DNA of 64,000 nucleotides from Dehalococcoidia bacterium. GTDB taxonomy: Bacteria; Chloroflexota; Dehalococcoidia; Bin125. This document shows positions 3,299 to 63,889 of this stretch, in pieces. Below the pieces are notes generated by a model. The model did not search any database and was not told the origin of the DNA. It was given only the letters and a program-made list of their open reading frames with translations. The stretch's first letter is position 1; each line of letters opens with the position of its first letter. The translations under genes and the position numbers were made by a program. The stretch spans positions 320,001-384,000 of the forward strand of contig CAXXSR010000002.1 of the NCBI GenBank assembly GCA_963662615.2, read 5' to 3'.

Positions 3299-3679
3299 TT
3301 ACTTTCTCACGGCGCGGCGCCGACCCGCCACCGTCTTGCGCGCGCCCCGGCGGGTGCGGGCGTTGGTACGGGTTCGCTGGCCGCGGAGCGGGAGGTTGCG
3401 TCGGTGGCGCTGCCCGCGGTAGCTGTTGATGTCGATCAAGCGCTGAATGCTCTGCCGAACCTCTCGGCGCAGGTCGCCCTCTACTAGGTAGTCGCGCTCA
3501 ATGATCTCGCGCACCCGCGTGATCTCGGATTCCGACAGTTCCCGCACGCGCCGCTCGGGGTCGATCTGGGACTTACGGACGATCTCCCGCGCGCGTGTGC
3601 CGCCCACCCCGTAGACGTAGCGCAGGGCGAAGGGCAGTTTCTTGTTGTCGGGGATGTCCACGCCGGCGATGCGCGCCAT
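3299..3679 (-). CDS. rpsM: 30S ribosomal protein S13
   Basis: MARIAGVDIP...RGQRTRTNARTR; start at ATG 3679. Confidence 0.98.
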   Translation of the reverse strand: MARIAGVDIPDNKKLPFALRYVYGVGGTRAREIVRKSQIDPERRVRELSESEITRVREIIERDYLVEGDLRREVRQSIQRLIDINSYRGQRHRRNLPLRGQRTRTNARTRRGARKTVAGRRRAVRK

Positions 3680-3689
3680 GCGGCTCTCC

Positions 3690-3965
3690 TTAGTTCTTGA
3701 AGCGGTAGGTAATGCGGCCGCGGGTGAGGTCGTATTCGCTGAGTTCAACCAGGACGCGGTCGCCCAAGAGGATCTTAATGTAATGCATTCGCATCTTGCC
3801 GGAGGTGTGGGCCAGCACCTCGTGCTCGTTGGCCAGCCCTACGCGGAACACGGCGTTGGGCAGCGATTCTTTGACCACGCCTTCGACTTCAATCTTATCC
3901 GTCTTGGGCCCGGGCTGGCCCCGCGCCGGCGCGCGTCTGCTGCGACTGTACGATCGTCGAGCCAA
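3690..3965 (-). CDS. infA: Translation initiation factor IF-1 with Arg-rich N-terminal extension
   Basis: [18 protein letters not shown]...[17 protein letters not shown]; TTG 3965 preceded by GGAGG. Confidence 0.95.
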
Positions 3966-5408: not shown

Positions 5409-7163
5409 TTAACGGATGAATCCCTCATAGTGCCGCATGAGCAGCTGCGCCTCCACCTGCTTCATAGTGTCCAGCGCGACGCCCACCACGATCAATAAGC
5501 CCACGCTGGAGAGGGTCAACGAGCGGCTGTCCGGGATGAACTCCGTGGTCAGAAACGGGACGATGGCGACGAAGCCCAGGAACAGGGCGCCGGCGAAGGT
5601 AATACGGAAGAGGACGCGGTTGATGTAGTCCTGCGTGGGCCGCCCCGGCCGGATGCCGGGGACGAACCCGCCCTGCTTCTGCAGATTCTCCGCCAGATTC
5701 TGCTGCTGGAAGGTGATCAGCGTGTAGAAGAAGGTGAAGATCACGACCAGGAGGAAGGAGAGCGCCCAGTAGAGCGGGCGGCCGGGCGAAAAGTTGGTCT
5801 GCACCCAGTTCGCGGCGCGGGCGATCCAGGCCGGCCGCTCGCCCACTGTTTGTCCTTCCACTTCGGGCGTGAAGGCGCTGTCGGGCTCATCGAGATGGGT
5901 AGGCACCCGGGTGGCGGCGATGAAGGTCCCCTCAAGATCTTCGAGCTGGATGAGCTTCGATCCGAGATCGTTGTTCTCCACGGTCCAGGTGGGGAGGAAT
6001 TCGCCGGTGGTCGCGTCCAGGCGGGTCTCGACGAACGTCAAGACGTCGGCGTCGCTGTCGCCGTTGATGCGATCGAGCACGTCGCCGAAGGTGTCGTCCG
6101 CGGCGGCATAGCTGATCTCCGCGTCGTTGACGCGGAAGCGGCCCTCCGGGCTGATCGCGGGGAACGCGTCGACGAGGAGGATGTCCTCGGTCTCATCCTC
6201 GGCGAAGGGGACTTCGACCAACGCCTTGGTGCTGGCGTCGTCGCCGCCGGCCACGGCGCCCTCAATATAGCCGGCAATGACGGAGGGGAAGATGATGATG
6301 GAGAAGGCGAATATCAGCGGGATCATACCGGCGCTGTTGACGCGCAAGGGGATATAGCTCTGTCCGCTCTGGCGATACATGCGCCCACCGCGAAAGACAC
6401 TGCGGGCGTACTGGACGGGGATGCGGCGCTGGGCCTCCTGGAAGAAGACGATGAGAGCGATCAAGGCGACGGCGATGAAGAGGACGATGGCCACGCCGCC
6501 GGCGCCGGTGTCGCTGAGGCGAATGGAGTTAAAGAGGGTAGGGAAGCTGGCCAAGATGCCGCCGAAGATGATGAGGGAGATGCCGTTGCCGATCCCCTTC
6601 TCCGTGATCAACTCGCCCAGCCAGATCAAGAACATGGTGCCGGCCGTCAGGGAGATGATGGCGGAAACGGTGGGGAGGGCGTCGGATCCGCTGAAGCCAA
6701 TGCCGGTGATCGCGTTGGCGTTCTCCAGGAGCAGGAGCTGGCCGTATCCCTGCACGACGGCCATGGGGACGGCGGCCCAGTAGGTGTAGAGCTGGATGCG
6801 GTTGCGCCCCTGCTCCCCCTCGCGGGCGAGCGCTTGCAGCCGCGGCACCATGGGCGTGAGCAGCTGCATGACGATGGAGGCGGTGATGTAGGGATAGACG
6901 CCTAGGGCGACGATGCTGAGGTTCTCCAAGCCACCGCCGCTGAAGAGGTTGAGGAAGCCGAGCACCGGGTTGTTGTCCAGGGCGCTGTCCAGCTGCGCCA
7001 ACTGCACGTTGGGTACCGGGATGTGCGCCACGAAGCGAAAGATGATCAGCATGGCCAGGGTGAAGGCGAGCTTGAGCCGGACGTCTGGCTGACGCCAGGC
7101 GTCCACCATCGCTTGGAGCAAGCGTGGTCTAGTGGGACTCTGCGCTGCTTGCGCGCGCTGCAT
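5409..7163 (-). CDS. secY: Preprotein translocase SecY, 584 aa, with ~140-aa inserted domain
   Basis: SIVALGVYPYITASI, GIGNGISLIIF, AGMIPLIFA, FVPGIRPG; ATG 7163 preceded by AAGGAG. Confidence 0.97.
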   Translation of the reverse strand: MQRAQAAQSPTRPRLLQAMVDAWRQPDVRLKLAFTLAMLIIFRFVAHIPVPNVQLAQLDSALDNNPVLGFLNLFSGGGLENLSIVALGVYPYITASIVMQLLTPMVPRLQALAREGEQGRNRIQLYTYWAAVPMAVVQGYGQLLLLENANAITGIGFSGSDALPTVSAIISLTAGTMFLIWLGELITEKGIGNGISLIIFGGILASFPTLFNSIRLSDTGAGGVAIVLFIAVALIALIVFFQEAQRRIPVQYARSVFRGGRMYRQSGQSYIPLRVNSAGMIPLIFAFSIIIFPSVIAGYIEGAVAGGDDASTKALVEVPFAEDETEDILLVDAFPAISPEGRFRVNDAEISYAAADDTFGDVLDRINGDSDADVLTFVETRLDATTGEFLPTWTVENNDLGSKLIQLEDLEGTFIAATRVPTHLDEPDSAFTPEVEGQTVGERPAWIARAANWVQTNFSPGRPLYWALSFLLVVIFTFFYTLITFQQQNLAENLQKQGGFVPGIRPGRPTQDYINRVLFRITFAGALFLGFVAIVPFLTTEFIPDSRSLTLSSVGLLIVVGVALDTMKQVEAQLLMRHYEGFIR

Positions 7164-9468: not shown

Positions 9469-9873
9469 TCACCAGACGTAGCACAGGACCTCGCCGCCCA
9501 CATTTTCGCTGCGGGCGCGATGGCCCGTCATGACGCCCCGCGGCGTGGAGAGGATGGCGACCCCCAGCCCCCCAAAGACGCGGGGGATCTCGCGTCGCTG
9601 CACGTAGACGCGCAGCCCCGGACGGCTGACGCGTTGAATCCCGGTCAAGATGGAGCCGCCCGCCTCACGGTAGAGCAGCTCAATGTCGATCTCCGGCAGC
9701 GGTTCGGCGCCGCTTTCTCGGACTTCATAGTCACGGATGAAGCCCTCCGTGGCCAGCACGTCCGCTATGGCGATCTTGAGCTTGGAGGCGGGAATGCGCA
9801 CGCGCTCGTGGCGCGCGGCGACGGCGTTGCGAATGCGCGTGAGCATGTCCGCGACGGGATCGGTGACGGGCAT
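9469..9873 (-). CDS. rpsH: 30S ribosomal protein S8
   Basis: [13 protein letters not shown]...GGEVLCYVW. Confidence 0.98.
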
Positions 9874-9888
9874 ACGGCGCTCCCTCTT

Positions 9889-10440
9889 CTAATTGGTCCG
9901 TGCGAACGGCATGCCCAGGAGCTCCAGGAGCCGCCGGCCCTCTTCGTCCGTGGCCGCGGTGGTGACGATATTGACTTGGAGCCCGCGAATGCGGTCCACG
10001 CTGCCGTAATCGATCTCGGGGAAGACGATCTGCTCGCGCAGGCCCAGGCTGAAGTTGCCTCGGCCGTCGAAGGCGGTGCGCGAGACGCCGTGGAAGTCAC
10101 GGATGCGGGGGAGGGTGGCGTTGATGGTACGGTCGAGGAACTCCCACATGCGGATGCCGCGAATAGTGCAGGTCAAGCCGATGGCGTTGCCGGCGCGGAG
10201 CTTGAAGTTGGCGACGGATTTCGTGGCCCGGGTGACGACCGGGCGCTGGCCCGTGATGGCCGCGAAGTCGGTGGCGGCAGTGTCCAGGGCGCGGGCGTTG
10301 GTGAGCGCCTCGCCGATGCCGGCGTTCACGACCACCTTGGTGACCGTAGGCACCTCCATGGTGTTGCCGTAGCGGAATTCGGTGCGCAGCTGCGGCACCA
10401 CCTCATCGCGATAGCGTTGCTGCAGGCGGGGGGCGTCCAT
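9889..10440 (-). CDS. rplE: 50S ribosomal protein L5
   Basis: LPRIRDFHG, FDGRGNFSLG, IVFPEIDY. Confidence 0.98.
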   Translation of the reverse strand: MDAPRLQQRYRDEVVPQLRTEFRYGNTMEVPTVTKVVVNAGIGEALTNARALDTAATDFAAITGQRPVVTRATKSVANFKLRAGNAIGLTCTIRGIRMWEFLDRTINATLPRIRDFHGVSRTAFDGRGNFSLGLREQIVFPEIDYGSVDRIRGLQVNIVTTAATDEEGRRLLELLGMPFARTN

Positions 10441-10754
10441 CAGTCCAGGTCCTCTTCGCAGCGCCGGCAATAGCGCACCTTCTGGCCGTTGGGGCGGAAG
10501 CGAAAGCCCATCCGGATGGCGCGGTCGCAGTCCGGGCAGACCACGGCCACGTTGCTCCAGTGCAGGGGCGCTTCGATCTCAATGATGCCCGCCTGGGTGC
10601 CCATGGCGCGGGCCTTCATGTGTTTTTTGACCAGGTTCACCCCCTGCACCCGCACCCGCTCTTGGCGCGGCAAGACCTCGCGGACCTGGCCCCGTTTGCC
10701 ACGATCCTTGCCGCTGAGCACTTCCACGAGGTCATCCTGGCGAATCCGACGCAC
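10440..10754 (-). CDS. rplX: 50S ribosomal protein L24
   Basis: VEVLSGKDRGKRG, EAPLHWSNV, CPDC...CRRC. Confidence 0.97.
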   Translation of the reverse strand: MRRIRQDDLVEVLSGKDRGKRGQVREVLPRQERVRVQGVNLVKKHMKARAMGTQAGIIEIEAPLHWSNVAVVCPDCDRAIRMGFRFRPNGQKVRYCRRCEEDLD

Positions 10755-22287: not shown

Positions 22288-23091
22288 CTACGTCGCTGTC
22301 TCCCGGGCGGCCAGGAGGGCGGTCCGCCGTGGCGCCGACTGCTGCCCGAAGAAGAGCCGCCGGAACCCTTCCGCCCACGGGACTCGTCCCTTTGTGATAG
22401 CGTCCGCCGCCCTGCGCTGGAGCCGCTGCGCCAATTCGTCGCGGGTGGTGGCCTTCACCTGACTCACGTGACAGCGCAGGGCGTCGATGCGGCGGTCCAG
22501 TTGGCGGCTCACGTCCACAAAATAGTCAGGCTCGCGGCTGCCCGCCAGCCAGACCGTGTTGACGCGATGGGGCTCCAGGCCCCGCGCAGCCTGCTCTGGA
22601 AAATAGTGGGGACTGCGGGCCAGCGGGTAGGCCGCATCCAGCGCGGCGATGCCGACCGCGCGGTGGTCGCGATGGTTGAAGCCGCGGTAGCCGTCCCACG
22701 TGATCAGGAGCGACGGGCGCTCCTGTCGGATCACGCCAACGAGGGTTTCGCGCAGCTCCGCGCTCTCCTCCACGAAGCCGTCGGGCCAGCGCAAGAAGAG
22801 GCAACGCGCCACGCCCAGCAGCGCCGCCGCCGCTCCCTGCTCGGCCTCCCGGAGCGCGGCCAGATTCGCCGGGGCGACGCGCACATCCTTGCCCCCTTTG
22901 TCGCCGCTGGTCACCAGGCAGAAGCTGACCTCCCAGCCGTCGTCGGTTAGTTTGGCCACAGAGCCGCCGCAGCTGAACTCAATATCGTCAGGGTGCGCCA
23001 TGATGACGAGCGCTCGCATGGGCTCGGGGGAGGGAGAGGGTGCTGCCGTCTGATCCGGGGCGTCCCGGCTGGATATCCTATCCCCAGTCAC
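22288..23091 (-). CDS. PIG-L family deacetylase (MshB/BshB-like)
   Basis: AHPDDIE, TSGDKG, REAEQ, HRDH; alternative start ATG 23019. Confidence 0.88.
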   Translation of the reverse strand: MTGDRISSRDAPDQTAAPSPSPEPMRALVIMAHPDDIEFSCGGSVAKLTDDGWEVSFCLVTSGDKGGKDVRVAPANLAALREAEQGAAAALLGVARCLFLRWPDGFVEESAELRETLVGVIRQERPSLLITWDGYRGFNHRDHRAVGIAALDAAYPLARSPHYFPEQAARGLEPHRVNTVWLAGSREPDYFVDVSRQLDRRIDALRCHVSQVKATTRDELAQRLQRRAADAITKGRVPWAEGFRRLFFGQQSAPRRTALLAARETAT

Positions 23092-23140
23092 ATCGCGTCC
23101 CCAGTCACAGTGCGTCCCCAGTCACAGCGCGTCCCCAATC
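23081..23140. repeat. 17-bp tandem repeat, about 3.5 copies
   Basis: tccccagtcaca(t/g)(c/t)gcg at 23081, 23098 and 23115, partial at 23132. Confidence 0.9.
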
Positions 23141-23149
23141 TAGCGAAGG

Positions 23150-24400
23150 CTAGCTGGCGTGACAGCCGGCGCCGACACCGGCCGCGTGACGTTGGAGCAG
23201 CTCCTCGTAGACGCCGGCGATCCGGCCGGCCACGGTCGCCCAGGCGTAGGGGAGAGCCGAGTCACGGGCGGCGCGGCCGAAGCGGGCACGGAGGTCGGCG
23301 CTCTCGAGGAGGGTCTCGATCCGCTCGGCGAACGGTTCCGGACAGCGCCAGGAGATGAGGTACCCGGTCTGCCCGTCGCGGACGGTGTGCTGGAGGCCGC
23401 CCACGCGGGTGGCGATCACGGGCGTGCCCGTCGCCAGCGCCTCTACAGCGACCAGGCCAAAGCTCTCATAAAACGAGGGCACGACACAGACATCGGCGGC
23501 CTGGTAGTAGCGGGGCAGCTGGCGGCGGTTGACCGCGTCGCGGAACTGCACACGCGGGGCAATGTCCAACTCCGCGCTCAACTTGCGCAGGGAGTCCCGC
23601 AAAGGGCCGTCCTGGCCGTCCCCGCCAACCACGAGGACGTAGAGCGGCTGCGCCAGGTCGGCCGCGGCCGCCGCCCGAATGAGGATATCCACGCCCTTGA
23701 GCGGCAGCAGTCGCCCCACGAACAGCGCCAGGGGTCCGTTGGGCAGGCCCAGCCCGCGCCGAGCGGCCGCGCGGTCGCCGGGGCGGAAGTGCTCCAGGTC
23801 CACACCGCCGGGGACCACGCTGACGCATTCCGGATGGGCGCCGTAGAGCTGCACAAGAAAGTCGCGCTCGTGCGGGGTGGCGCAGATGAGACGGTCGGCG
23901 CGGCGGACGATGGTCCGTTCCGCCTCAATGCGGACGGAGGGCTCGCGCTCGGCGCGGGGCGCGCGGTTTTTCACCTCTCCCAGGGTGTGAAACATGACCA
24001 CGTGGGGACAGCGCCACTCGTCCGCCAAGGCCAGGCCGGTCAGCGCCGAGAGCCAGTAGTGGGAGTGGATCAGGTCGTAGCGGCGGCCGTGGTCTCGCGC
24101 CCAGGCCCTGACGCGGTCCGTGAATTCGGGCAGGATCGGGCGCACCTGCAGGGGAGCGAGGCGCCGTGGCGGCCCAGCGGGGATGTGGACCACACGAACG
24201 TTTGGCGACAGCTCCACGGATTCCGGGAGATCGGGGTGGTCGCGGCGCGTAAAGATATCGACGGTGCGGCCCAACCGCCCCAACTGCCGCGTCAACTCAG
24301 CGATGTAGACGTTCATTCCCCCCGCCTTGGTCGTGCCGGGCTGGGCCAGCGGGGACGAGTGCGCGCTGATGAAGGCGAGGCTGTGGAGATGGTGTGACAT
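23150..24400 (-). CDS. GT4 glycosyltransferase, MshA-like
   Basis: HSSPLAQPG..AGGMNVY, HSHYWLS, ESFGLVAVEA: MshA signature motifs. Confidence 0.9.
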   Translation of the reverse strand: MSHHLHSLAFISAHSSPLAQPGTTKAGGMNVYIAELTRQLGRLGRTVDIFTRRDHPDLPESVELSPNVRVVHIPAGPPRRLAPLQVRPILPEFTDRVRAWARDHGRRYDLIHSHYWLSALTGLALADEWRCPHVVMFHTLGEVKNRAPRAEREPSVRIEAERTIVRRADRLICATPHERDFLVQLYGAHPECVSVVPGGVDLEHFRPGDRAAARRGLGLPNGPLALFVGRLLPLKGVDILIRAAAAADLAQPLYVLVVGGDGQDGPLRDSLRKLSAELDIAPRVQFRDAVNRRQLPRYYQAADVCVVPSFYESFGLVAVEALATGTPVIATRVGGLQHTVRDGQTGYLISWRCPEPFAERIETLLESADLRARFGRAARDSALPYAWATVAGRIAGVYEELLQRHAAGVGAGCHAS

Positions 24401-35616: not shown

Positions 35617-36342
35617 ATGAACGTCTGGGTCCAGCTCTATGCGAGCCTGGCGGAGGCGGCGGGAACCCGTCGGGTGAGCCTGAGCGATCTGCCCGAGCCG
35701 GCTACCGCGGGTGATCTCGGCGAGGCCATTTTCCGACTGTACCCGCAACTCCGCGCGTTGCGAGAGTCGATCATCTACGCGGTCAATGCGGAGTATGTGG
35801 AATCCGACTATCCCGTGGGGGCCGGCGACGAAGTGGCGCTGATCCCTCCCGTCAGCGGCGGCGAAGGCGACCCGCATTTCCGCATCAGCGCGGATCCGCT
35901 CAACGTTCAGGCCCTGCACGATCTCGTGCTGCGTCCCCAGGCGGGCGCCGTCTCCCTCTTCGTGGGCGTCGTGCGCAACAACAACCTGGGGCGCGACGTG
36001 GACCACCTGGAGTACGACGCCTATCCGGCGATGGCGGGCAAGGTGATGCAACAGATCGCGGAGGAAGTGCGGAGGCGCTGGGACGTCACCGAGGTGGCCA
36101 TGCATCACCGCACCGGCCGACTGGAGATCGGTGAGGCGAGCGTGGCCATCGCCGTCTCGTCGCCGCATCGCGCGCAAGCGATCGACGCCTGCCACTACGC
36201 CATCGACCGGCTCAAGCAGATCGTCCCGATCTGGAAGAAGGAAGTCTGGTCGGACGGCGAGCACTGGATCGAAGGCAGGGTGACGCCGGCGACGGAGGCG
36301 AAGCCGGCGCCCGAGTCGGCCGCGGTGCAGGACGGTGACTAG
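35617..36342 (+). CDS. MoaD-MoaE fusion molybdopterin synthase (MoaX-like)
   Basis: MoaD ending DEVALIPPVSGG (residues 81-82) fused to MoaE (GAVSLFVGVVR, HRTGRLEIGE, SSPHR, VPIWKKE). Confidence 0.93.
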   Translation: MNVWVQLYASLAEAAGTRRVSLSDLPEPATAGDLGEAIFRLYPQLRALRESIIYAVNAEYVESDYPVGAGDEVALIPPVSGGEGDPHFRISADPLNVQALHDLVLRPQAGAVSLFVGVVRNNNLGRDVDHLEYDAYPAMAGKVMQQIAEEVRRRWDVTEVAMHHRTGRLEIGEASVAIAVSSPHRAQAIDACHYAIDRLKQIVPIWKKEVWSDGEHWIEGRVTPATEAKPAPESAAVQDGD

Positions 36343-48274: not shown

Positions 48275-49564
48275 TTACTGGTCCGGCCCCAGCGACTTGA
48301 GCCAGCTCCAGATGTTGAAGACGTCCTCATCCTCAATGCGATCCGCGGGGAATGCGGGCATGGCTTCGCGCGGGCTGCGGTATTGCTGCAACTCCTGCGA
48401 GAAGGCCAGTTGCGTCCCGGCGATCATGGGGCCGATGCCGCCCTCGCCGAGATCGCCGTGGCAGACGTTGCAGCCGTTGGAGAAGAAAAGCTCCTCGCCC
48501 CGGCCGAGATCCGCGCTGAAGCCGCTGGTGTCGACTTCCGGGGCGGCGGCCGCCGGGGTGGCGGTCGCGGTGCTGCGCTGGCCACAGGTGCTCTGCGTCA
48601 CTGACACGGCGGGCGTGGCGACGGGAAGGCCGTCAGCAACGCGCGCTTGCGCCGCCTGAAGTTGCTGGTCCGCGTCGGTCAGGGCATTCGAGGCCACCGC
48701 GCTGCGGACCACCCACAGAGCGGCGAGCGGGTCACCGCCGACTTGGGCCAGGGCGTCGTCCACGGCGGCACCGAGCGCTTCAGCCTCCGCCGCGGTCATC
48801 ACCGCCGCCACAGCCTCAAGGGCGGCCTCATCCCCGGATTCCTCGGCCGCGGCCAGCTCCTGTCCAAATTGTTCGTCCACCGCCGCGACGATCTCAACGC
48901 GGCGCAGCAACGTCAGGGCGTTCTGCAGCGCGACGAGCACGTCCCCGTTAGCCGCCTCGACCTGGGCCTCTCGGGCCGCCGCCACGCCGAGGTCGGTCGC
49001 GCCGGCTTCCGCGGCGTTCAGCGCGTCCTCCAGACCGGCCAAAGCAACCTCGTCCTCCTCATGGGCGAGTTCCAGCGCCTCCGCCCAGGCATCGCCAGCA
49101 TTGGTGGTAATGAGCGCAACCAGCGATTCAATATGGGAGAAATTCAGCGACCCGCCCTGTTCCACCAACCAAGGCGGCATGGGCGTGCCGTTGCGGCCGC
49201 AGGCGATGGTGCTGGAGAAGCGAAGCTGCCGCTCGTCCAATTTGCTCCGGGCGGCATCTCGATCGGCGGCTTCCAGAGAGTTGTCGTTCGCCAGGCGCCA
49301 AGCCAGCGTGTTGGCCGGTTGGTTGAGGGCGGGGCCGATCACGGTGGCGTTGCCGTCCCGCCCCAGGCCGTTGTTGCCGTGGCAGACCCGGCAATTTCGC
49401 GCGAAGATCCGCGCTCCGCGCTCAGCCGCGTCCACCGCCTGCTCCTCTTCCGCCTCCGGCCGCCGGCCCTCGTCGAACCAGACGTATGCGCCCAAGCCAA
49501 TGACACCGAGAAACATCAGCGCCACCATGGCGAGGATCTGCTTGCGGGTGTTCTGGCGGCTCAT
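48275..49564 (-). CDS. Membrane-anchored diheme cytochrome c
   Basis: N-terminal TM; CRVCH and CNVCH; Met ligands MPPW and MPAF. Confidence 0.9.
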   Translation of the reverse strand: MSRQNTRKQILAMVALMFLGVIGLGAYVWFDEGRRPEAEEEQAVDAAERGARIFARNCRVCHGNNGLGRDGNATVIGPALNQPANTLAWRLANDNSLEAADRDAARSKLDERQLRFSSTIACGRNGTPMPPWLVEQGGSLNFSHIESLVALITTNAGDAWAEALELAHEEDEVALAGLEDALNAAEAGATDLGVAAAREAQVEAANGDVLVALQNALTLLRRVEIVAAVDEQFGQELAAAEESGDEAALEAVAAVMTAAEAEALGAAVDDALAQVGGDPLAALWVVRSAVASNALTDADQQLQAAQARVADGLPVATPAVSVTQSTCGQRSTATATPAAAAPEVDTSGFSADLGRGEELFFSNGCNVCHGDLGEGGIGPMIAGTQLAFSQELQQYRSPREAMPAFPADRIEDEDVFNIWSWLKSLGPDQ

Positions 49565-49612
49565 CCGCTCCGGCTCTTCCTTCAATTCCTCTGGCGCCGC
49601 CCCGGCGCCGGG

Positions 49613-50434
49613 TTAGATGGGGTAGGGCTTCGCCCGTGTGGGATTATCGGCGCCGCCTTTGGTGATGACGCCCGTGTTGACGCTGAGGCTGCCGTCCTCG
49701 TTGACCGTGACGTCCATGGTGTCCATGGGCCGGGGGGCGGGGCCAAAGACGCGAACGCCCGCCTTGGTGTAGGTGGAGCCGTGGCAGGGACAGCGGAACC
49801 ACCCGGAAATGGCGTCGAAGGCGAAGTCGGAGCGCCAGGGCACGGTACAGCCCAGATGCGGGCACTTCCACCACAGAGCGAGCAGGCCGCCGCCACCCTC
49901 TTCGCCGAAGCCGGCGTGGGTGCCTTCGTCCGGGCGCAGATTGGAGAGCCAGAACTTGCCCACGGTGATGCGGGCGGGATCGTCACCGGGCTCGGGCACC
50001 AGGTCGGCGGCCACGGCGATCTTGCCGCCGAATCCCGTGAGGCCTCGCGGCCAGAAGAAGGCCAAGAAGGCCGAGACCGAGCCGGTGAGGCCAAGGAAGA
50101 ACACCCCCCAGAAGGACGTTTGGAGCAGCTGCCGCCGGGTCAGCTCCATGCGCCGCTGGCGGCGGCGCTGCGCCCGCGTGACGATGGCCCGCTCGCGTCC
50201 CGGCTCCTCCGTGATCGCCGCGCGCTCAGCGCCCGGCAAGAACGGAGCGCGCTGCGGCCGCGCCGCCCCCGAGGGCGTAGGCGGGACGGGGACGAGCTGC
50301 TGAGGGCCACCCTCGCCGGTGCCGGCGGGGGGCGCGGCTTCCGCCGGACCGGTAGTTGCCGGGACCTGGGGAGCTTCCCCGCCGCCGCCTGCCTCTGGCT
50401 CTTGGGCGGGCGGCTCTCGCTCGTCTGGACTCAT
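49613..50434 (-). CDS. Rieske iron-sulfur subunit
   Basis: Tat-like TRRQLL plus TM; CPHLGC and CPCHGS. Confidence 0.95.
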   Translation of the reverse strand: MSPDEREPPAQEPEAGGGGEAPQVPATTGPAEAAPPAGTGEGGPQQLVPVPPTPSGAARPQRAPFLPGAERAAITEEPGRERAIVTRAQRRRQRRMELTRRQLLQTSFWGVFFLGLTGSVSAFLAFFWPRGLTGFGGKIAVAADLVPEPGDDPARITVGKFWLSNLRPDEGTHAGFGEEGGGGLLALWWKCPHLGCTVPWRSDFAFDAISGWFRCPCHGSTYTKAGVRVFGPAPRPMDTMDVTVNEDGSLSVNTGVITKGGADNPTRAKPYPI

Positions 50435-50503
50435 GATGCCTGGCAGCTCGCTCTCACTTCGCTGACGGAGCGCGTCTGGGCCAGAGGCCGGCCCCGGTCC
50501 GGC

Positions 50504-51406
50504 CTACTCCTGGACCACTACGATATCCCATGGCGGCCGCAACTCCTGCCCTTGGCCGCGGAAGGCCACGCCGACGGTTATGAGCACGATGTAGACCGAG
50601 ATGAAGCCGGTGAAGATCAAGATGGCGATGTCGCGCCGTGTCTTGATCCAGCCCAGCTTCTTCTTCGTGAACCAGACCAGGGCCAAGGGCCCGCCCACCA
50701 TCGTCGCTACCGGCACGATCTGCTGGGAGAGGAAGCTGGGGAAGTTCAGGTTCAAGAGCCAGGGACTCTCCCTGGTGCCCGGGATGCCAATGGGGATCGC
50801 ACGCCAGTCCTGGAACAGCTTAAAATCGCCGACGTTGAAGCTGAGGGCGTCCCAATTGATGCCCACGTCCAGGCCGCGGAGGTTGCGCGCCCAGTCCAGC
50901 GCGGCCGGCCAGACGAAGTCTCTGTTGAGGCCGCTGCCGCGGATGAACGCCTCCGTCCACTCCACGTGCTTGGAGGCGTCGTAGAGGATGAGCCAGATGG
51001 TGATCAGCCCCGCGGCGCAGAAGCCCCAGACCGTCAGCCGCACCGAGTACTTGCTGCCGAACCAGAGGCCTTGGTTCTCCGTGGAGCGATCCCAGTAGGG
51101 GATGGCCGCCAGGAGGATCAGCGCGATGGTCGGCACGATCACCCCCGCCCAAGCCGGCTCCATGTGCAGCAACAGCTCCTGCAGGTTGAGGAAGTACCAG
51201 GGCGCCTTGGACGGATTGGGCGTGGTGTCCGGGTCGGCGCGGTCGAGCAGGGGCGCATTCAGGAACGAGGAGAGGACCAACAGACTGATGGTGAAGAGGA
51301 CGGCGGCGATGAACTCGACGAAGACGAGGTCCGGCCAAACCAGGACCTCTTCTTCCCGGGCGCGCCGTGGGCGCGCCCGCACGGCTGTCGCAACGCGCGT
51401 CGCCAT
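50504..51406 (-). CDS. Cytochrome b subunit IV (PetD-like)
   Basis: VWPDLV..E, APL...ADP..TPNPSKAPWYFL (PEWY-position motif). Confidence 0.88.
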   Translation of the reverse strand: MATRVATAVRARPRRAREEEVLVWPDLVFVEFIAAVLFTISLLVLSSFLNAPLLDRADPDTTPNPSKAPWYFLNLQELLLHMEPAWAGVIVPTIALILLAAIPYWDRSTENQGLWFGSKYSVRLTVWGFCAAGLITIWLILYDASKHVEWTEAFIRGSGLNRDFVWPAALDWARNLRGLDVGINWDALSFNVGDFKLFQDWRAIPIGIPGTRESPWLLNLNFPSFLSQQIVPVATMVGGPLALVWFTKKKLGWIKTRRDIAILIFTGFISVYIVLITVGVAFRGQGQELRPPWDIVVVQE

Positions 51407-51468
51407 GCCCCCTACTTTCGCGGCCCGATCCGGTACACGCTTTCCGTGCTACACCAGCGCCGCCGCCC

Positions 51469-52224
51469 CTAGAGCGGACGCGCCATGCCCCCGTCTCGAC
51501 GGATGCGCCAGAAATGAACCGATACGAAGATCGCAAAGATGAGCGGCAGCCCAATGACGTGCAGCGTGTAGAAGCGGATCAGCGCGTTGGGACCCACCTC
51601 AAAGTCGCCCAGCAGCAGGAACTTGCTTTCATCACCCAGGACGGGCGCCGAGCCGATCATGGTGGTGCCCACGGTGATGGCCCAGAACGCCAGTTGGTCC
51701 CAGGGCAGCAGGTAGCCGGTGAAGGAGAGGAGCAGCGTGACGACGAAGAGGATCACGCCCACCATCCAGTTGAACTCGCGGGGGGGCTTGTACGCGCCCG
51801 TGTAGAAGACCCGCATCATGTGCAGCAAGACCAGGATGATCATTGCGTGCGCCATCCAGCGGTGGAGGTTGCGCAGCAGCAGGCCGAAGCGCACGTTCGT
51901 CTCCAGCGCCTGGATGTCCGCGTAGGCCCGTTCCACGGACGGCACGTAGTAGAACATCAGCAGGACGCCTGTGACGGTGAGGCCCAGGAACATGAAGAAC
52001 GACAGGCCACCCAGGCAGTAGGTGTGCGTGATCTTGACGTGGGTGCGGTGGATGCGAGTGGGGTGGAGGTGCAGGAAGACGCTGGTGGCCACCACGAGCA
52101 TCTGATTGCGAGGGGTATTGGGATAGCCGGAACGGAAGATGGACTGCCAGACGTAGTTACGGAAGATCAGACCGTAGAGCTGGTCGTTGATGCCGCGGCG
52201 CGGCGGGCGCTCTACGCGGGCCAT
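51469..52224 (-). CDS. Cytochrome b6-like N-terminal subunit
   Basis: YCLGG (heme ci Cys), LHRW.AH...[29 protein letters not shown]. Confidence 0.95.
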
Positions 52225-57877: not shown

Positions 57878-58465
57878 TCAGTCGACGAGGGGAACCTCCT
57901 CGACGGTAGGGCGAAGCCGAACGCGACCGCTGCCCGGCGGCTCGGGACCCGGGCGCAGGTCGATCTCGGTGGGCTTGACGGCGCCGTCGATGCCGGTGCT
58001 CTCGATGCGCCAGGCGCGGACCGGCGGTGGTTCCTCCGCAAGAGAGACCAGCACCCAGTACGGCCACGGGTCTGAGCCCAAGAGCCGGGCGGCGATCCCC
58101 AGATCGGTTGGCGATGGCCGGGCTTCCGTCATGGTGTGCGAGTGGTAGATCACCAGCATGTCCCCGCCCTCGCCTTCAATGGCGCGGTACAGATGGATGA
58201 GTTCATGTCCGGGGATGGAGAAGCGGTAGCGACTCGTCTCACCGGTAACGGGTTCACTGTCGCGACCGCGGAACCGGATATCCATCTCCCCGCCCCGGGA
58301 CAGCAAAGCGTCCACAGTCCGATAGACGTTTGACGCCCGATAGAGCTTGAGGGAACCGTCCGGAAAGCGGCCAATCAGGCCGCAACATTCGCTGGGATTG
58401 TCCTCCCGAGCGTGTTTGATCATCTCGTCGATGAACGACTGCGGCAGCGTCAGCGCCTCGTCCAT
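57878..58465 (-). CDS. JAMM/MPN+ (M67, Mec-like) metalloprotease
   Basis: P.ECCGL and HSHTMTEARPSPTD JAMM motif; YWVLVSL. Confidence 0.92.
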   Translation of the reverse strand: MDEALTLPQSFIDEMIKHAREDNPSECCGLIGRFPDGSLKLYRASNVYRTVDALLSRGGEMDIRFRGRDSEPVTGETSRYRFSIPGHELIHLYRAIEGEGGDMLVIYHSHTMTEARPSPTDLGIAARLLGSDPWPYWVLVSLAEEPPPVRAWRIESTGIDGAVKPTEIDLRPGPEPPGSGRVRLRPTVEEVPLVD

Positions 58466-58567: not shown

Positions 58568-58960
58568 TTACTCGTCCTCCGGCGGCGGGCGCCATTCGCG
58601 GATGGGCCCATCGTCGTGGCAGGACGAGGGGTTGCGCTGCATCTCCAGCAAGGACCGGCTCAGCGGCGGCATGAGGAGGTGATCGAGCCAGTGGTCGCGC
58701 TCATCCTCCGCGACGAGCTGCACGAGATCGTCGAAGCGCAGGTGGATGACGCGATCGTCTTCCACGAGGCCGAAGTCCAGAATGGGACGGCCGGGCCGTA
58801 GCAGCCGGCCCACGGTATCGCTGCGCAGGATCTTGGCGCCGGGCGCTTGCAGATAGCGGTGCAGCACGGCGGCTCGGAAGTGCAGCGGCAAAGCGCCGGC
58901 TTGACCGGCCCGCAAGGCGCCTTCCAGCGATCGACGAAAGACCGGATCGCTTCTCTGCAC
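58568..58960 (-). CDS. Hypothetical protein, 130 aa
   Basis: Co-oriented ORF with SD AAGGAG between rhodanese and JAMM genes; no recognised motif. Confidence 0.75.
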   Translation of the reverse strand: MQRSDPVFRRSLEGALRAGQAGALPLHFRAAVLHRYLQAPGAKILRSDTVGRLLRPGRPILDFGLVEDDRVIHLRFDDLVQLVAEDERDHWLDHLLMPPLSRSLLEMQRNPSSCHDDGPIREWRPPPEDE

Positions 58961-59000
58961 GCGCTCCTTGGGGCGCTCCGCGCCGCTCTTGCCCTGCCGC

Positions 59001-59849
59001 CTACGTGGCCGATGGGTTCTCGATCGGCGTCCCCGCCATCCTGCCCCACTCAGTCCAGGAGCCGTCGTAGTTGCGGACGTCCTGGTAGCCGAGGAGATGC
59101 TTGAGCGCGAGTCAGCTGTGCGAGGAGCGCTCGCCGATTCGGCAATACGCGATGATCGGTTTCGAGCCGTCTATGCCCCTGCCGCCATAGACTGCCCGCA
59201 GCTCATCAGCGCTCTTGAAGGTGCCATCTTCCGCAACCGCCTGGACCCAGGGAATGTTGTCGGCGCCGGGAATATGCCCCTTGCGCTGCGCCGTCTCCGC
59301 CAGGCCTGGTGGCGCCATGATCACGCCGTTGTATTCGTCGGGCGAGCGGACGTCGACCAGCGGGTTGCCGCTGTTGACGTGGCTGAGCACGTCCGGCGCC
59401 AGGGCGCGGATCGACTCGTCCCGCGCACCAACGGTGATGTTGCCGGCAGCGGAGCTGGAGGCATCGGTGGTGGTGGGGCGGCCCTCATCCAGCCACTTCT
59501 TGCGGCCCCCGTTCATCAGCTTGGTGTTCGTGACGCCGTACATCTCCAGCATCCAGAGGGCGTAGGCCGCAAACCAGTTGTTGTTGTCCCCGTAGAGGAT
59601 GATCGTGCTGTCCGCTTTCGCGCCGGCGCCGCGAAGGAGCCTCTGGACTGTCGCGCTGTCGGCCACGTCACGGCGGATCTGGTCCTGGAGCTGCGACGTC
59701 CAGTTCCAGGCCACGGCGCCGGGCGGGTGCCCCTCGTCGTAGACGCTGGTATCCACGTCCACTTCAATCAGCCGGACTTTGGGGTCGTCCAGGTGGTCGG
59801 CGACCCAGTCTGTGCTCACGAGGATGTCGGCGTTCGCGTATTCCGCCAT
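59001..59849 (-). CDS. Tandem-domain rhodanese/thiosulfate sulfurtransferase (SseA/CysA-like) with in-frame TGA at 59112-59114
   Basis: [49 protein letters not shown]...[11 protein letters not shown]; 282 aa if read through. Confidence 0.9.
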
Positions 59850-59998: not shown

Positions 59999-60973
59999 CT
60001 ACCACCAGAGCTGCCCTTCGATCTCCTCGTCCCCCTCAATGTCCTCATAGTCACGTCCCCACAGGCCGGTGGAGACGTACTTCCAGCCGCCGTCGGCCAA
60101 GAGGACGACGACGTCGCCACTGTCGATGCGCTCGGCCACGCGCTGGGCAGTGCGCAACGCCGCGCCGGCCGAGATGCCCGCGAAGACACCCTCTTGCTCC
60201 AGCAGCCGCTTGGTGAGAGCAAACGACGTGCGGCTGTCAACGACGATGCGCGCGTCCAGCACCGATTCATCCAGCACGGGCGGCACGTAGCCCTCTTCCA
60301 GGCTGCGCAGCCCCTGCACGAGATCGCCAGGGTGCGGCGTGGCGGCCACGATCTTCACGTCCGCTTTGGCGCCCTTGTGCGTTTTGGCACCCTTGAAAAA
60401 GTGGCCCACGCCGGTCAAGGTGCCGCCCGTCCCCAGCCCGGCCACAAAGTGCGTGACATCAGGACAGTCGCGCAGGATCTCCGGGCCGGTGGTAGCGAAA
60501 TGGGCGGCGGGGTTGTGGGGATTTTCGTACTGCATGGGCATGAACAGGGACGGCTCTTCCCGTTGCAGCTCTTTCGCCATCTTGACGGAGCCGTTGGTCC
60601 CCAACTCGCCGGGCGAGAGGATCACCTCCGCGCCGTAGAACTGGAGGAGCGACCGACGCTCCACGCTGACACTCTCCGGCAGCACGCACCTGAGGGGATG
60701 GCCGTAGAGTCGCGCCACCATCCCCAGCGCGATGCCGGTGTTGCCGCTGGTGGGCTCCAGGATGGTTTGCCCCGGCTTCAGCGACCCGTCGGCGCGGGCC
60801 GCGTCGATCATCGCGCGGGCGATGCGATCCTTGACCGAGCCGGTGGGGTTCTGGCCTTCCAGCTTCGCCCAGATGCGCACGGACTCCTTCGGCGACGAAT
60901 GCCGCAAGAGCAGCAACGGCGTATTGCCGATCAGGTCAAGGACGGATTCGTAGCGCGTCGCAGGTGGCGCCAC
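59999..60973 (-). CDS. cysM: Cysteine synthase CysM-type (sulfur-carrier dependent)
   Basis: LEGQNPTGSVKDR, EPTSGNTG, GLGTGGT, ADGGWKY..TG, C-terminal GQLWW like actinobacterial CysM. Confidence 0.85.
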   Translation of the reverse strand: MAPPATRYESVLDLIGNTPLLLLRHSSPKESVRIWAKLEGQNPTGSVKDRIARAMIDAARADGSLKPGQTILEPTSGNTGIALGMVARLYGHPLRCVLPESVSVERRSLLQFYGAEVILSPGELGTNGSVKMAKELQREEPSLFMPMQYENPHNPAAHFATTGPEILRDCPDVTHFVAGLGTGGTLTGVGHFFKGAKTHKGAKADVKIVAATPHPGDLVQGLRSLEEGYVPPVLDESVLDARIVVDSRTSFALTKRLLEQEGVFAGISAGAALRTAQRVAERIDSGDVVVLLADGGWKYVSTGLWGRDYEDIEGDEEIEGQLWW

Positions 60974-60981
60974 TACGACGG

Positions 60982-61254
60982 TCAGCCTCCCGCCAGCGCG
61001 GGCAGGATGGACACGACGTCCCCGTCCCGCAGAGGGGTGTCGATCTGCCCGAGGAAGCGGATGTCCTCATCGTTGAGGAAGATGTTGACGAAGCGTCGCA
61101 GCGCGCCGTCCTCCATGATCTGATCGCGGAAGCCAGGGAAGTCGGTGTCGATGTTCCCCAGCAGGATGGCGACGGTGTCGCCTTCGTAGAGCAGAATCTT
61201 CTGGCCCTCCGTGTACTTTTGCAGGATCGAGGGAACGCGTACTTCTACGGACAT
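60982..61254 (-). CDS. Ubiquitin-like sulfur carrier (CysO/MoaD/SAMP-like)
   Basis: LRRFVNIFLNDEDIRF...VSILPALAGG-stop; free C-terminal GG. Confidence 0.93.
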   Translation of the reverse strand: MSVEVRVPSILQKYTEGQKILLYEGDTVAILLGNIDTDFPGFRDQIMEDGALRRFVNIFLNDEDIRFLGQIDTPLRDGDVVSILPALAGG

Positions 61255-61258
61255 GCTC

Positions 61259-62368
61259 TCAGCCTTGCGACACCGGCTGCGCCACGGCTCCTTCGTGGAA
61301 GGGCGAGCCACAGAACTCTTCGTAATCGATCAGCTCGGTCACGGTGGGCGCGTCGCCGCAGAGCGGGCAGTGCGGGTCGTGACGGATCTTGACGATGCGG
61401 AACTCCATCGCCAGCGCGTCGTAGAGCAACAGCCGGTTCTTGAGCGGCTCACCGATCTCCAGCAGCAGCTTCAGGGCCTCCGTCGCCTGAACGCCGCCCA
61501 CTGTGCCCGGCAAGGCGCCCAGGACTCCGGCTTCCGCGCAGGACGGCACCATGCCGGGCGGCGGCGGACTGGGGTAGAGGCAGCGGTAGCAGCCCTGGCC
61601 GGGAAGGAAGGTTGTGATTTGGCCCTCGAAGAGGAAGATGCTCCCGTCGACGAGGGGCTTTTCCAGCAAGTAGCAAGCGTCGTTGACGAGATAGCGCGTG
61701 GCGAAGTTGTCGGCGCCGTTCACCACGATGTCGTATTGGGAGATGATGGCGAAGGCGTTCTCCGAGGTGAGCGGCTCCTCGTGCTTCACCACGGTCACGT
61801 TGGGATTGACGTCCGCGAGGCGATCGGCTGCCGATTCAACCTTGGGCCGCCCCACGTCACTGGTGCCGTGAATGATCTGCCGCTGCAGGTTGCTCAGATC
61901 CACTTGGTCGAAGTCGACGATGCCGAGCGTCCCCACCCCGGCCGCGGCCAGATAGAGGAGCACTGGCGAGCCGAGGCCGCCCGCGCCCACGACCAACACT
62001 TTGCCGTTCATCAATTTCCGCTGCCCCACCGGGCCGACCTGATCCATGATCAGATGGCGGGCGTAGCGGTCCACCTGCTCCGGCGTCAGCGCCGCCCCTC
62101 CGGCAATGGCGGGAATGACCGAAACCTCGTCACCTTCCGCGACGGGCGTGTCGGACCCGCGCAGGGTTGAGATCTCCTGGTTGTTCACGTAGACGTTGAC
62201 GTCTTCGAGAATCTTGCGATCGGCGTCGAAGACCATCTCGCCGAAGCCGGGGAAGCGCCGTTCCAAGTCGCGCAGCACGCCGGCAACGTCGGAGCCGTCG
62301 GCGTCGACGAAGGTGCGGTTGCCCGCCAAGCGCCGAAAGGGCGTGGGGATATAGACCCGGACCGTCAT
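61259..62368 (-). CDS. Ubl (MoaD-like)-MoeB/ThiF E1 adenylyltransferase fusion
   Basis: Residues 1-91 Ubl ending PAIAGG, then RYARH, GAGGLGS, DLSNLQRQ, CYRC, SCAEAGV, CPLC; no C-terminal rhodanese. Confidence 0.93.
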   Translation of the reverse strand: MTVRVYIPTPFRRLAGNRTFVDADGSDVAGVLRDLERRFPGFGEMVFDADRKILEDVNVYVNNQEISTLRGSDTPVAEGDEVSVIPAIAGGAALTPEQVDRYARHLIMDQVGPVGQRKLMNGKVLVVGAGGLGSPVLLYLAAAGVGTLGIVDFDQVDLSNLQRQIIHGTSDVGRPKVESAADRLADVNPNVTVVKHEEPLTSENAFAIISQYDIVVNGADNFATRYLVNDACYLLEKPLVDGSIFLFEGQITTFLPGQGCYRCLYPSPPPPGMVPSCAEAGVLGALPGTVGGVQATEALKLLLEIGEPLKNRLLLYDALAMEFRIVKIRHDPHCPLCGDAPTVTELIDYEEFCGSPFHEGAVAQPVSQG

Positions 62369-62379
62369 GCCTGCCCTCC

Positions 62380-63357
62380 CTACGAGGCCGGCGCCCGCTC
62401 GCGCCGGTGAGCGCCCGCGCGGGCTGTGGTCGCCGGTTCAAGGTTCACGCTCAAGTATCGCTCGCCGGTGTCGCAGATGACTGTGACGACGCGCTTACCC
62501 GCCCCCAGGTCCTGCGCGACCCGGCAGGCGGCCGCGACGTTGGCGCCGGACGAGATCCCGGCCAAGATCCCTTCCTCCCGCGTGAGGCGGGCCGTCATGG
62601 CGTAGGCGTCCTCGTCGCGGATGCCCATGACCTCGTCGTAGATATCGCGGTTGAGGACGCAGGGGACGAAGGAGGCGCCGATCCCCTGGATGCCGTGCAC
62701 GCCAAAGCGTCCCCCTTGCAGGACGGGCGAGCGCTCCGGCTCCACCGCCACAATGAGGAGATCCGCCCGGTGTTGCCGCAACACCTCGCCCACGCCGGTA
62801 ATGGTCCCGCCGGTGCCCACGCCCGCCACGAAGGCGTCAATGCGCCCGCCCGTCGCCTCCCAGATCTCCTCCGCCGTCGTGCGGCGGTGCACCTCGGGGT
62901 TGGCCGGGTTCAGGAACTGCTGGGGCAAGAAGTGGCCCGGGCGCTCCGCGATCTCCTCGGCGGCGAACACGGCCCCGGTCATCCCCTCAATGGCGGGGGT
63001 GAGGACCAGCTCCGCGCCGTAGCGCTCGAAGAGTCGCCGCCGCTCCTGGCTCATGTCCTCCGGCATAGTGAGGATGAGGTGATACCCCTTCACGGCCGCG
63101 ACCATGGCCAGGCCCACGCCCGTGTTGCCGCTGGTGGGCTCAACGAGGGTGTCGCCCGGCCTGATCCGCCCCGACCGCTCGGCCTCTTCGATCATCGCCT
63201 TGGCGATGCGATCCTTCACGGAGCCAGCCGGGTTGAGCGTCTCCATCTTGCCCAGCACCTCGGCGGCGCCTTCCGGCACCACGCGGCGCAGGCGGACCAA
63301 TGGGGTCTCGCCCACCAGGTCCACAACGGAATCAACAATGCCGCGACGACTGTTCAT
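62380..63357 (-). CDS. cysK: Cysteine synthase A
   Basis: NPAGSVKDR, EPTSGNTG, QQFLNPAN, GVGTGGT, HGIQGIG, DTGERYLS. Confidence 0.93.
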   Translation of the reverse strand: MNSRRGIVDSVVDLVGETPLVRLRRVVPEGAAEVLGKMETLNPAGSVKDRIAKAMIEEAERSGRIRPGDTLVEPTSGNTGVGLAMVAAVKGYHLILTMPEDMSQERRRLFERYGAELVLTPAIEGMTGAVFAAEEIAERPGHFLPQQFLNPANPEVHRRTTAEEIWEATGGRIDAFVAGVGTGGTITGVGEVLRQHRADLLIVAVEPERSPVLQGGRFGVHGIQGIGASFVPCVLNRDIYDEVMGIRDEDAYAMTARLTREEGILAGISSGANVAAACRVAQDLGAGKRVVTVICDTGERYLSVNLEPATTARAGAHRRERAPAS

Positions 63358-63412: not shown

Positions 63413-63844
63413 TTAGATAGAGTACCGACCGCCGCCGACCGCCGCCTCCTCTTTGGCGAGATCGGCGAGTGTGCGGCTGCGTAGGACTCGTCGGGTGGAC
63501 TCCCGGACCTCCTCCCACATCCGAAGTTGCGCAACCGAACCGGAACAAGCGAGGTCGGGGTCGTCCAGACAGGCGCCCGGGCTAATGGGCCCCTCCAGAT
63601 TCTCGACCACGTCCTCCATCACGATGGCCTCCGGATCGCGGGCCAGCTCGTGTCCTCCCTGTGCGCCGCGGACCGAGCGGACCAAGCCCGCGAGCCGCAG
63701 CGCCCCCAGCACCTGCCCCACCAGGGATTCTGGGATCCCTTGGCGGCTGGAGATCTCGCTGCTGGGGATGGGACCACGGCCCCGGTTCTGCGCCAAGTCC
63801 ACGAGAGCGCGGATCCCGTAATCCCCTTTGCTTGTGAGTCTCAT
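63413..63844 (-). CDS. Rrf2 family transcriptional regulator (CymR/IscR-like)
   Basis: MRLTSKGDYG.RAL, GLVRSVRGAQGG..LAR, LEGP; only two Cys. Confidence 0.93.
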   Translation of the reverse strand: MRLTSKGDYGIRALVDLAQNRGRGPIPSSEISSRQGIPESLVGQVLGALRLAGLVRSVRGAQGGHELARDPEAIVMEDVVENLEGPISPGACLDDPDLACSGSVAQLRMWEEVRESTRRVLRSRTLADLAKEEAAVGGGRYSI

Positions 63845-63889
63845 CCCGACCTCATGACGCTGATGGGACAAGCGACGGTAATCTGTACT

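Follow-up and report, generated by a model that had tools for sequence, protein, structure and literature searches.

Introduction

In the sulfur relay described in PMC8584467, the rhodanese TtuD passes persulfide to the ubiquitin-like protein TtuB through the E1-like protein TtuC, and mycobacteria possess a cysteine pathway composed of CysO, CysM, Mec+ and MoeZR (PMC3227635). Rhodanese families that contain selenocysteine (Sec) also exist, and for almost every known selenoprotein there are homologues with Cys (PMC13188914). In-frame stops are described as common in bacteria as short-lived polymorphisms; PMC7918605, the source of this statement, argues that some reduce expression without abolishing it and that some are read through. 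Here we describe a rhodanese gene that is interrupted by an in-frame TGA and lies in a sulfur gene cluster within a 64-kb window, by which we mean the whole stretch of DNA that was analysed. The names borne by homologues of the rhodanese and of the window EF-G indicate Chloroflexota, probably Dehalococcoidia, in line with the Chloroflexota context assumed in an earlier reading of the sequence.

A rhodanese gene interrupted by an in-frame TGA

The gene (59001..59849, minus strand) encodes a tandem-domain rhodanese/thiosulfate sulfurtransferase of the CRIGER active-site subfamily, as judged from PDB matches and from two PF00581 domains in the read-through protein (X at 246). Its ORF starts at an ATG at 59849 and continues for 245 codons to a TGA at 59112..59114 (minus strand; context AGC-TGA-CTC), beyond which 36 sense codons lead to a TAG at 59001-59003. 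Read through, the ORF would have 282 codons, and the stop interrupts it at codon 246. The codon for the active-site Cys236 in the YCRIGER loop (TGC, 59142..59144, minus strand) is intact and lies ten codons before the TGA; this Cys falls in the second domain and is presumably catalytic, as expected for the family. The read-through protein aligns end to end with its best PDB match, 1UAR (E=7.7e-95), which we take to be TtuD, and it also matches 3AAX/3HWI. In the AlphaFold2 model of a relative, P0002 (pLDDT 97), residue 246 lies inside helix 240-252, and the TGA, at a codon for which homologues have Trp, thus falls mid helix. The post-stop segment (59001..59111, minus strand; 36 sense codons and the TAG, with the changes F247L, S270R and V272A) encodes the remainder of helix 240-252, a strand at 258-261 and a helix at 264-268 (YDGSWTEW). 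A complete C-terminal domain with YDGSWTEW is absent from the table 11 product and is encoded only past the TGA.

An earlier reading made from the sequence alone (hereafter the sequence-only reading) had described 36 sense codons with GC-rich third positions beyond the stop, and we find the same, with the peptide exactly as that reading quoted it (GC3 is 0.92 downstream of the TGA vs 0.87 upstream). It had also placed the TGA ten residues past the Cys at a position where the family usually has Trp, as the best homologues confirm (all 120 have W). The rhodanese gene writes each of its nine Trp residues as TGG. The same reading had dismissed genetic code 4, and we reach the same result for codes 4 and 25, because TGA terminates 13 of the 40 other listed window genes (seven of the 40 end in TGA-C), the ubiquitin-like carrier gene at 60982-61311 ends ...ALAGG-TGA, and Trp is written as TGG, with 166 such codons across 41 window genes. 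In a codon-score screen for in-frame stops the known site came no higher than rank 19 among 585, so the screen has low power; those of its top hits that could be matched were neighbouring genes in the same frame.

An RF2-like +1 frameshift was considered and rejected: the bridging peptide is of low complexity, the downstream gene has its own AAGGAG...GTG start, and the AGC in the P site would be unable to re-pair in the +1 frame. That frame is open for 181 codons from the TGA into the downstream hypothetical gene (58568-59113, minus strand), probably by chance in GC-rich DNA.

The surrounding sulfur gene cluster

The rhodanese gene is part of a co-oriented series that runs in the order Rrf2 regulator, CysK, ThiS-ThiF/MoeB fusion, CysO/MoaD-like carrier, CysM-like synthase, rhodanese, hypothetical protein, JAMM peptidase, folP and folK. 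On the minus strand throughout, it includes an Rrf2-family regulator (63413..63871; CymR/IscR-like, TIGR00738 above cut-off), cysteine synthase A (CysK, 62380..63357; TIGR01139 above cut-off), which is a possible alternative cysteine route, and a fusion of a ThiS/MoaD-like domain with a ThiF/MoeB E1-like enzyme (61259..62368; PF02597 and PF00899, NF004281 above cut-off) in which Pfam detected no C-terminal rhodanese domain (PF00581). The CysO/MoaD-like ubiquitin-fold sulfur carrier (60982..61311; PF02597) ends in Gly-Gly followed by TGA, and its true start is probably downstream of the listed GTG. A second cysteine-synthase-family enzyme (59999..60973; TIGR01136, 328 bits against a cut-off of 344) is CysM-like by context. 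Directly downstream of the rhodanese gene are a 130-aa hypothetical protein (58568..58960; no NCBIfam or Pfam match, and a best Atlas value of 0.84 that is a lead only) and then a JAMM/Mec+-like peptidase (57878..58465; PF14464, with a weak NF041370 match). By analogy, this cluster likely operates in the manner of the mycobacterial CysO/CysM/Mec+ pathway; in it the free rhodanese would probably donate persulfide, as TtuD does for TtuB.

Several other features of the window were recorded. Ubiquitin-like fusions occur twice, as the ThiS/MoaD-like + ThiF/MoeB gene (61259-62368, minus strand) and as a MoaX-like MoaD + MoaE gene (35617-36342, plus strand). An MshA-like glycosyltransferase adjoins a BshB/MshB-like deacetylase (22288-24400, minus strand; both below cut-off), a pair that by its sequence matches suggests mycothiol- or bacillithiol-type thiol synthesis. 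A cytochrome c/Rieske/cytochrome b cluster is found at 48275-52224 (minus strand); its cytochrome b scores 291.9 against NF040969 (ExtP, of a selenite/tellurite reduction operon), barely above the threshold of 290, and the match of a neighbouring gene to ExtQ is far below cut-off. Among the ribosomal genes, rplE and rpsH follow one another within ~15 nt (9469-10443, minus strand), with no space for rpsN (S14), and infA and rpsM within ~20 nt (3299-3905, minus strand), with no space for rpmJ (L36); in the standard gene order these gaps are the usual places of rpsN and rpmJ. SecY (5409-7124, minus strand) is unusually long, at ~550 residues over a 414-position model, which implies an insertion of ~130-140 aa.

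Residue 246 in protein relatives

Trp246 is present in every one of the 120 best homologues (of 8000 scored). The closest listed relative, P0002, has 282 aa, is 99% identical and differs from the window protein by S133P, H244R, X246W and A272V. It represents eight member sequences as a 90% cluster representative, and such representatives may conceal truncated members; the Trp codon behind the P0002 protein is assumed to be TGG. The sequence-only reading had named TGG in close relatives as evidence against recoding, and at the protein level Trp246 in this full-length relative is evidence of that kind. Alleles that carry the stop would give shorter proteins with a poorer rank. A second search therefore used the 245-aa form as query, and none of its best 120 homologues, all cluster representatives, ended at the residue 245/246 site.

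A more distant set consisted of the 150 best 50%-cluster representatives, of which 124 cover the site in 146 aligned stretches. As printed, these stretches carry W 103, Y 32, F 4, S 2, C 2, T 2, L 1 and E 1 at residue 246; in the 134 that have the catalytic Cys aligned the counts are W 93, Y 31, F 4, S 2, T 2, L 1, E 1 and C 0. Both Cys-bearing stretches (2 of 146) are without the catalytic Cys, and one of the S residues and others come from distant multi-domain proteins. The structures 1UAR and 3HWI/3AAX carry W-F at 246-247. As judged from these alignments, column 246 is an aromatic position and not a Cys/Sec site.

Stop codons at codon 246 across GTDB genomes

We scanned 185,579 GTDB genomes with the degenerate pattern C-R-I-[GA]-E-R-S-x3-(TAN or TNA)-x13/14-Y-D-G-S-W-T, which omits TGG and in which TAG serves as a built-in control. 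The pattern matched the window site once and gave no match in 100 shuffles; the Trp-bearing protein motif matches 120 of 120 close homologues and only 40 of 150 distant representatives. Seven loci in unrelated taxa were recovered, with TGA at one, TAG at two, Tyr (TAY) at three and TCA at one. The TGA locus (L006, 410-501) is from an Acidimicrobiia MAG, in a phylum other than that of the window, and the TAG loci are from a Dehalococcoidia MAG (L002, 2880-2971) and an Acidobacteriaceae MAG (L005, 1861-1952). The TCA (Ser) locus belongs to a Streptomyces gene in which the frame is broken upstream. The three stops are independent, and in the Acidobacteriaceae locus the residue after the TAG is Val instead of Phe.

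A single transition can turn TGG into either of these stops, TGA or TAG. Conservation of the TGA at this codon across genera, which the sequence-only reading had proposed as a check, is not seen: one GTDB genome has TGA and two have TAG, a small tally from a scan restricted to TAN and TNA codons, in a collection that may or may not include the window species. Because the seven loci are scattered, with one TGA against two TAG, TGA is neither conserved nor favoured over TAG, and stops at codon 246 appear from these genomes to be rare, scattered and without a bias to TGA.

Hairpins near the TGA

The sequence-only reading had pointed to a small hairpin about 16 nt downstream of the TGA at a SECIS-like distance. 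The hairpin is there, and TCCT-CGGCTACC-AGGA (59080..59095, minus strand), with a stem of 4 bp, does begin 16 nt past the TGA; its SECIS-like significance does not survive comparison, as a perfect 4-bp hairpin stands at equal distance from 87 of 148 ordinary TGG sites, which is to say that it is at chance level. As drawn, its energy is -1.9 kcal/mol. At 113 of the 148 ordinary TGG sites the next 60 nt are more stable than at the TGA site, and five windows around the TGA show no gain in folding over shuffles (z from +1.26 to -1.19).

We approximated the bSECIS rules published in PMC13188914 as a 3-9 nt loop with a G, a stem of 4-16 bp, a spacing of 16-37 nt and an MFE <= -7.5 kcal/mol. The hairpin at 59080-59095 misses the energy rule. 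Another, longer hairpin (-12.8 kcal/mol), whose loop is 36 nt past the UGA, passes all four approximate rules, but because 88 of 166 control TGG sites (53%) pass them too, this pass is uninformative. A scan with Rfam gave nothing at gathering threshold in the 64-kb window and only five chance-level matches near the rhodanese gene, and the other TGA locus (L006) is without a hairpin of the 4-bp type.

Departures from conserved residues cluster in codons 244-272

An alignment of 135 homologues (the 119 close ones and 16 of the 150 distant ones, in which the motif is present and the length is 260-330 aa) has 83 near-invariant columns (>= 95% conserved). The window protein departs at four of the 83 (W246stop, F247L, S270R, V272A) and P0002 at three (H244R, F247L, S270R), and none of the departing residues is present in any of the 135 homologues. 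The sequence-only reading had called the C-terminus intact. This is true of the frame, which is open; it is not true of the protein, in which F247L, S270R and V272A lie at columns that are 96-100% conserved in the 135 homologues. F247L and S270R are common to the window and P0002, and V272A is private to the window. The two shared departures would be lineage changes or shared errors, and since P0002 is full length, bears Trp and has both, they predate the stop or do not need it.

Taking the window and P0002 together, there are five departures in the 17 columns from 244 onward vs none in the 66 columns before (Fisher p=2e-4, with the boundary picked after seeing the data). In the 119 other close homologues, 106 of which have no departures at all, 16 departures fall before this boundary and three after it. 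The clustering at 244-272 is unexplained; local relaxation, a poor local consensus or an older truncation would fit, and a null state of the whole gene fits less well. On the alignment the post-stop segment is the most altered part of the gene, whereas programmed recoding predicts its selective upkeep. Mutagenesis by a diversity-generating retroelement was rejected, since the window has no template repeat: nothing in 59001-59160 recurs elsewhere in it over more than 14 nt. The 64-kb window contains no rhodanese paralogue.

Origin of the TGA

Taking a real allele and a sequencing error jointly, we consider it highly probable that the TGA is not recoded; the stop itself is, in our judgement, an ordinary lesion and not a recoding site. 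The sequence-only reading had listed last the option that TGG became TGA by a recent mutation or through an error, and it is the one that the Trp-bearing relatives, the scattered stops and the chance-level hairpin support. The leading proposal of that reading, Sec or programmed readthrough, finds no such support, with Trp in 120 of 120 homologues, an unconserved TGA and a hairpin at chance level.

Probably, the TGA is a real and recent nonsense allele at the strain level that arose by a single TGG>TGA transition at Trp246. One G>A transition would have turned the family TGG into TGA, unprogrammed, and RF2 would terminate translation at residue 245, mid-helix past the catalytic loop. The product would lack the remainder of helix 240-252, the last beta-strand and the helix with YDGSWTEW, and because of these losses the 245-residue sulfurtransferase would probably be unstable or inactive. 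From the gene context, the intact enzyme most likely supplies the E1/ubiquitin-like carrier encoded nearby with persulfide sulfur, which would feed a cysteine synthesis of the CysO-thiocarboxylate type; loss of the rhodanese may be tolerated because CysK is encoded in the same cluster.

A sequencing or consensus error, in which the assembly miscalled G as A and the true codon is TGG, giving a full-length enzyme, is less likely but quite possible. One transition suffices for it, the near-identical P0002 has Trp, and three variant sites (codons 244, 246 and 247) lie within ~10 nt, as they would in a poor local consensus; three of the four allele differences fall within 29 of the 282 codons (p ~0.004, post hoc). 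All three stop-bearing GTDB loci, moreover, are from MAGs, and 41 window genes contain 730 codons that a single transition would turn into a stop, in a window that was chosen by a genome scan. Other observations speak against error. EF-G of the window, used as a control, departs from 297 conserved columns at five, each time together with its 98% relative P0273 and never privately, and the 14 residues that differ between the two lie in variable columns. No other split gene was seen by eye among 70 ORFs (63 with an NCBIfam match), all 28 in-frame GC-TGG Trp codons of the window are intact, and F247L and S270R are found again in a second record, P0002. The EF-G control, the lack of another split gene and the intact GC-TGG codons lean us to a real allele over an error. 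A motif-linked miscall near CAGC/GCTGG was likewise rejected on the 28 intact codons, in a test that is weak in having only two AGC-TGG controls. Against a real null allele, the whole gene should drift, yet the conserved-column lesions are confined to 244-272. This confinement would suit a lineage-level truncation, in which the stop is old, a 245-aa product (the N-terminal and most of the catalytic domain) is selected and the tail decays, as none of the 66 columns before residue 244 is affected. Such a truncation is nevertheless improbable: P0002 is full length with Trp and yet has F247L and S270R, no homologue among the best 120 found with the 245-aa query ends at the site, and the cut would take away core secondary structure in the modelled fold.

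Readings in which the UGA is decoded are weaker still. A functional readthrough of a leaky UGA-C with Trp, basal or linked to sulfur and giving a small regulated output of full-length enzyme, would restore the family residue, Trp being the usual residue inserted at UGA by readthrough, and in E. coli UGA-C stops translation only weakly; the frame past the stop is open and its GC3 high. We nonetheless regard it as quite improbable, given that TGA-C terminates seven of the 40 other window genes, that the TGA is unconserved in the GTDB scan, that no stable stimulatory RNA structure is seen and that no part of the gene is more degenerate than the segment after the stop. Insertion of Sec at the Trp position by a SECIS and SelB we consider extremely improbable. 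In its favour are the longer hairpin that formally passes the approximate bSECIS rules, the existence of Sec-containing rhodaneses and a cluster that belongs to sulfur metabolism; this genome may well encode Sec machinery, since some Dehalococcoidia genomes have 46-49 selenoprotein genes (PMC13326102). The 64-kb window itself holds no sel genes or tRNA-Sec. Opposed to Sec are the control TGG sites that pass the same rules at 88 of 166, the failure of the 59080-59095 hairpin on energy, an aromatic column with Cys in none of the 134 stretches that have the catalytic Cys aligned, a TAG at the same codon in a Dehalococcoidia MAG (L002) and the lack of the 4-bp-type hairpin at L006, the sole other TGA locus. 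In a broader form, UGA246 might be actively recoded in one Dehalococcoidia-like lineage, as Sec or as Trp under S/Se control, with 244-272 representing a remodelling of the helix adjacent to the active site instead of decay; this is very improbable. Were recoding true, it would give either a selenoprotein without Cys homologues, which breaks the Cys/Sec rule for finding selenoproteins, or a translational switch in sulfur metabolism that senses sulfur and acts within a cysteine pathway.

Comparison with known systems

With the nonsense substitution as the preferred reading, the locus serves as a calibration case: in GC-rich DNA a single transition at a Trp codon yields just this picture, an isolated TGA followed by a readable tail and with a hairpin close by. 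A tally of TGA vs TAG at one codon across genomes is a cheap test of recoding against random nonsense. A small residual interest lies in why the changes of this lineage group in codons 244-272.

The rhodanese-like selenoproteins of forms 1-5 (UxxS, UxxG, CxU/NF041203, TsoB) share with the window gene a rhodanese fold and an in-frame UGA (PMC13188914). Their Sec is found in short redox-type motifs, whereas the window UGA is ten residues past an intact Cys at an aromatic position of a helix; the window rhodanese scores 20 bits against NF041203, for which the cut-off is 115. Compared with the sporadic in-frame nonsense alleles of bacteria (Belinky et al. 2021, PMC7918605), nothing essential differs, and the cluster at 244-272 is a local oddity.

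The closest structural counterparts are the Thermus thermophilus rhodanese 1UAR and the Mycobacterium thiosulfate sulfurtransferases 3AAX/3HWI, which have the same two rhodanese domains, the YCRI[G/A]ERSSH[S/T] loop and the YDGSWTE signature. Where these have W-F, the window allele has stop-Leu (TGA-CTC) at 246-247, and it has S270R and V272A in addition. Unlike the 1UAR/3AAX/3HWI entries, the window rhodanese sits in a CysO/CysM/Mec+-like cluster. Like the mycobacterial pathway, this cluster brings together a ubiquitin-like carrier, a cysteine-synthase-family enzyme, a JAMM peptidase and an E1-like enzyme. It differs from that pathway in that its E1 begins with a ThiS-like domain and lacks a fused rhodanese, in that CysK is in the cluster, and in that the rhodanese is a separate gene, the very one that is interrupted.
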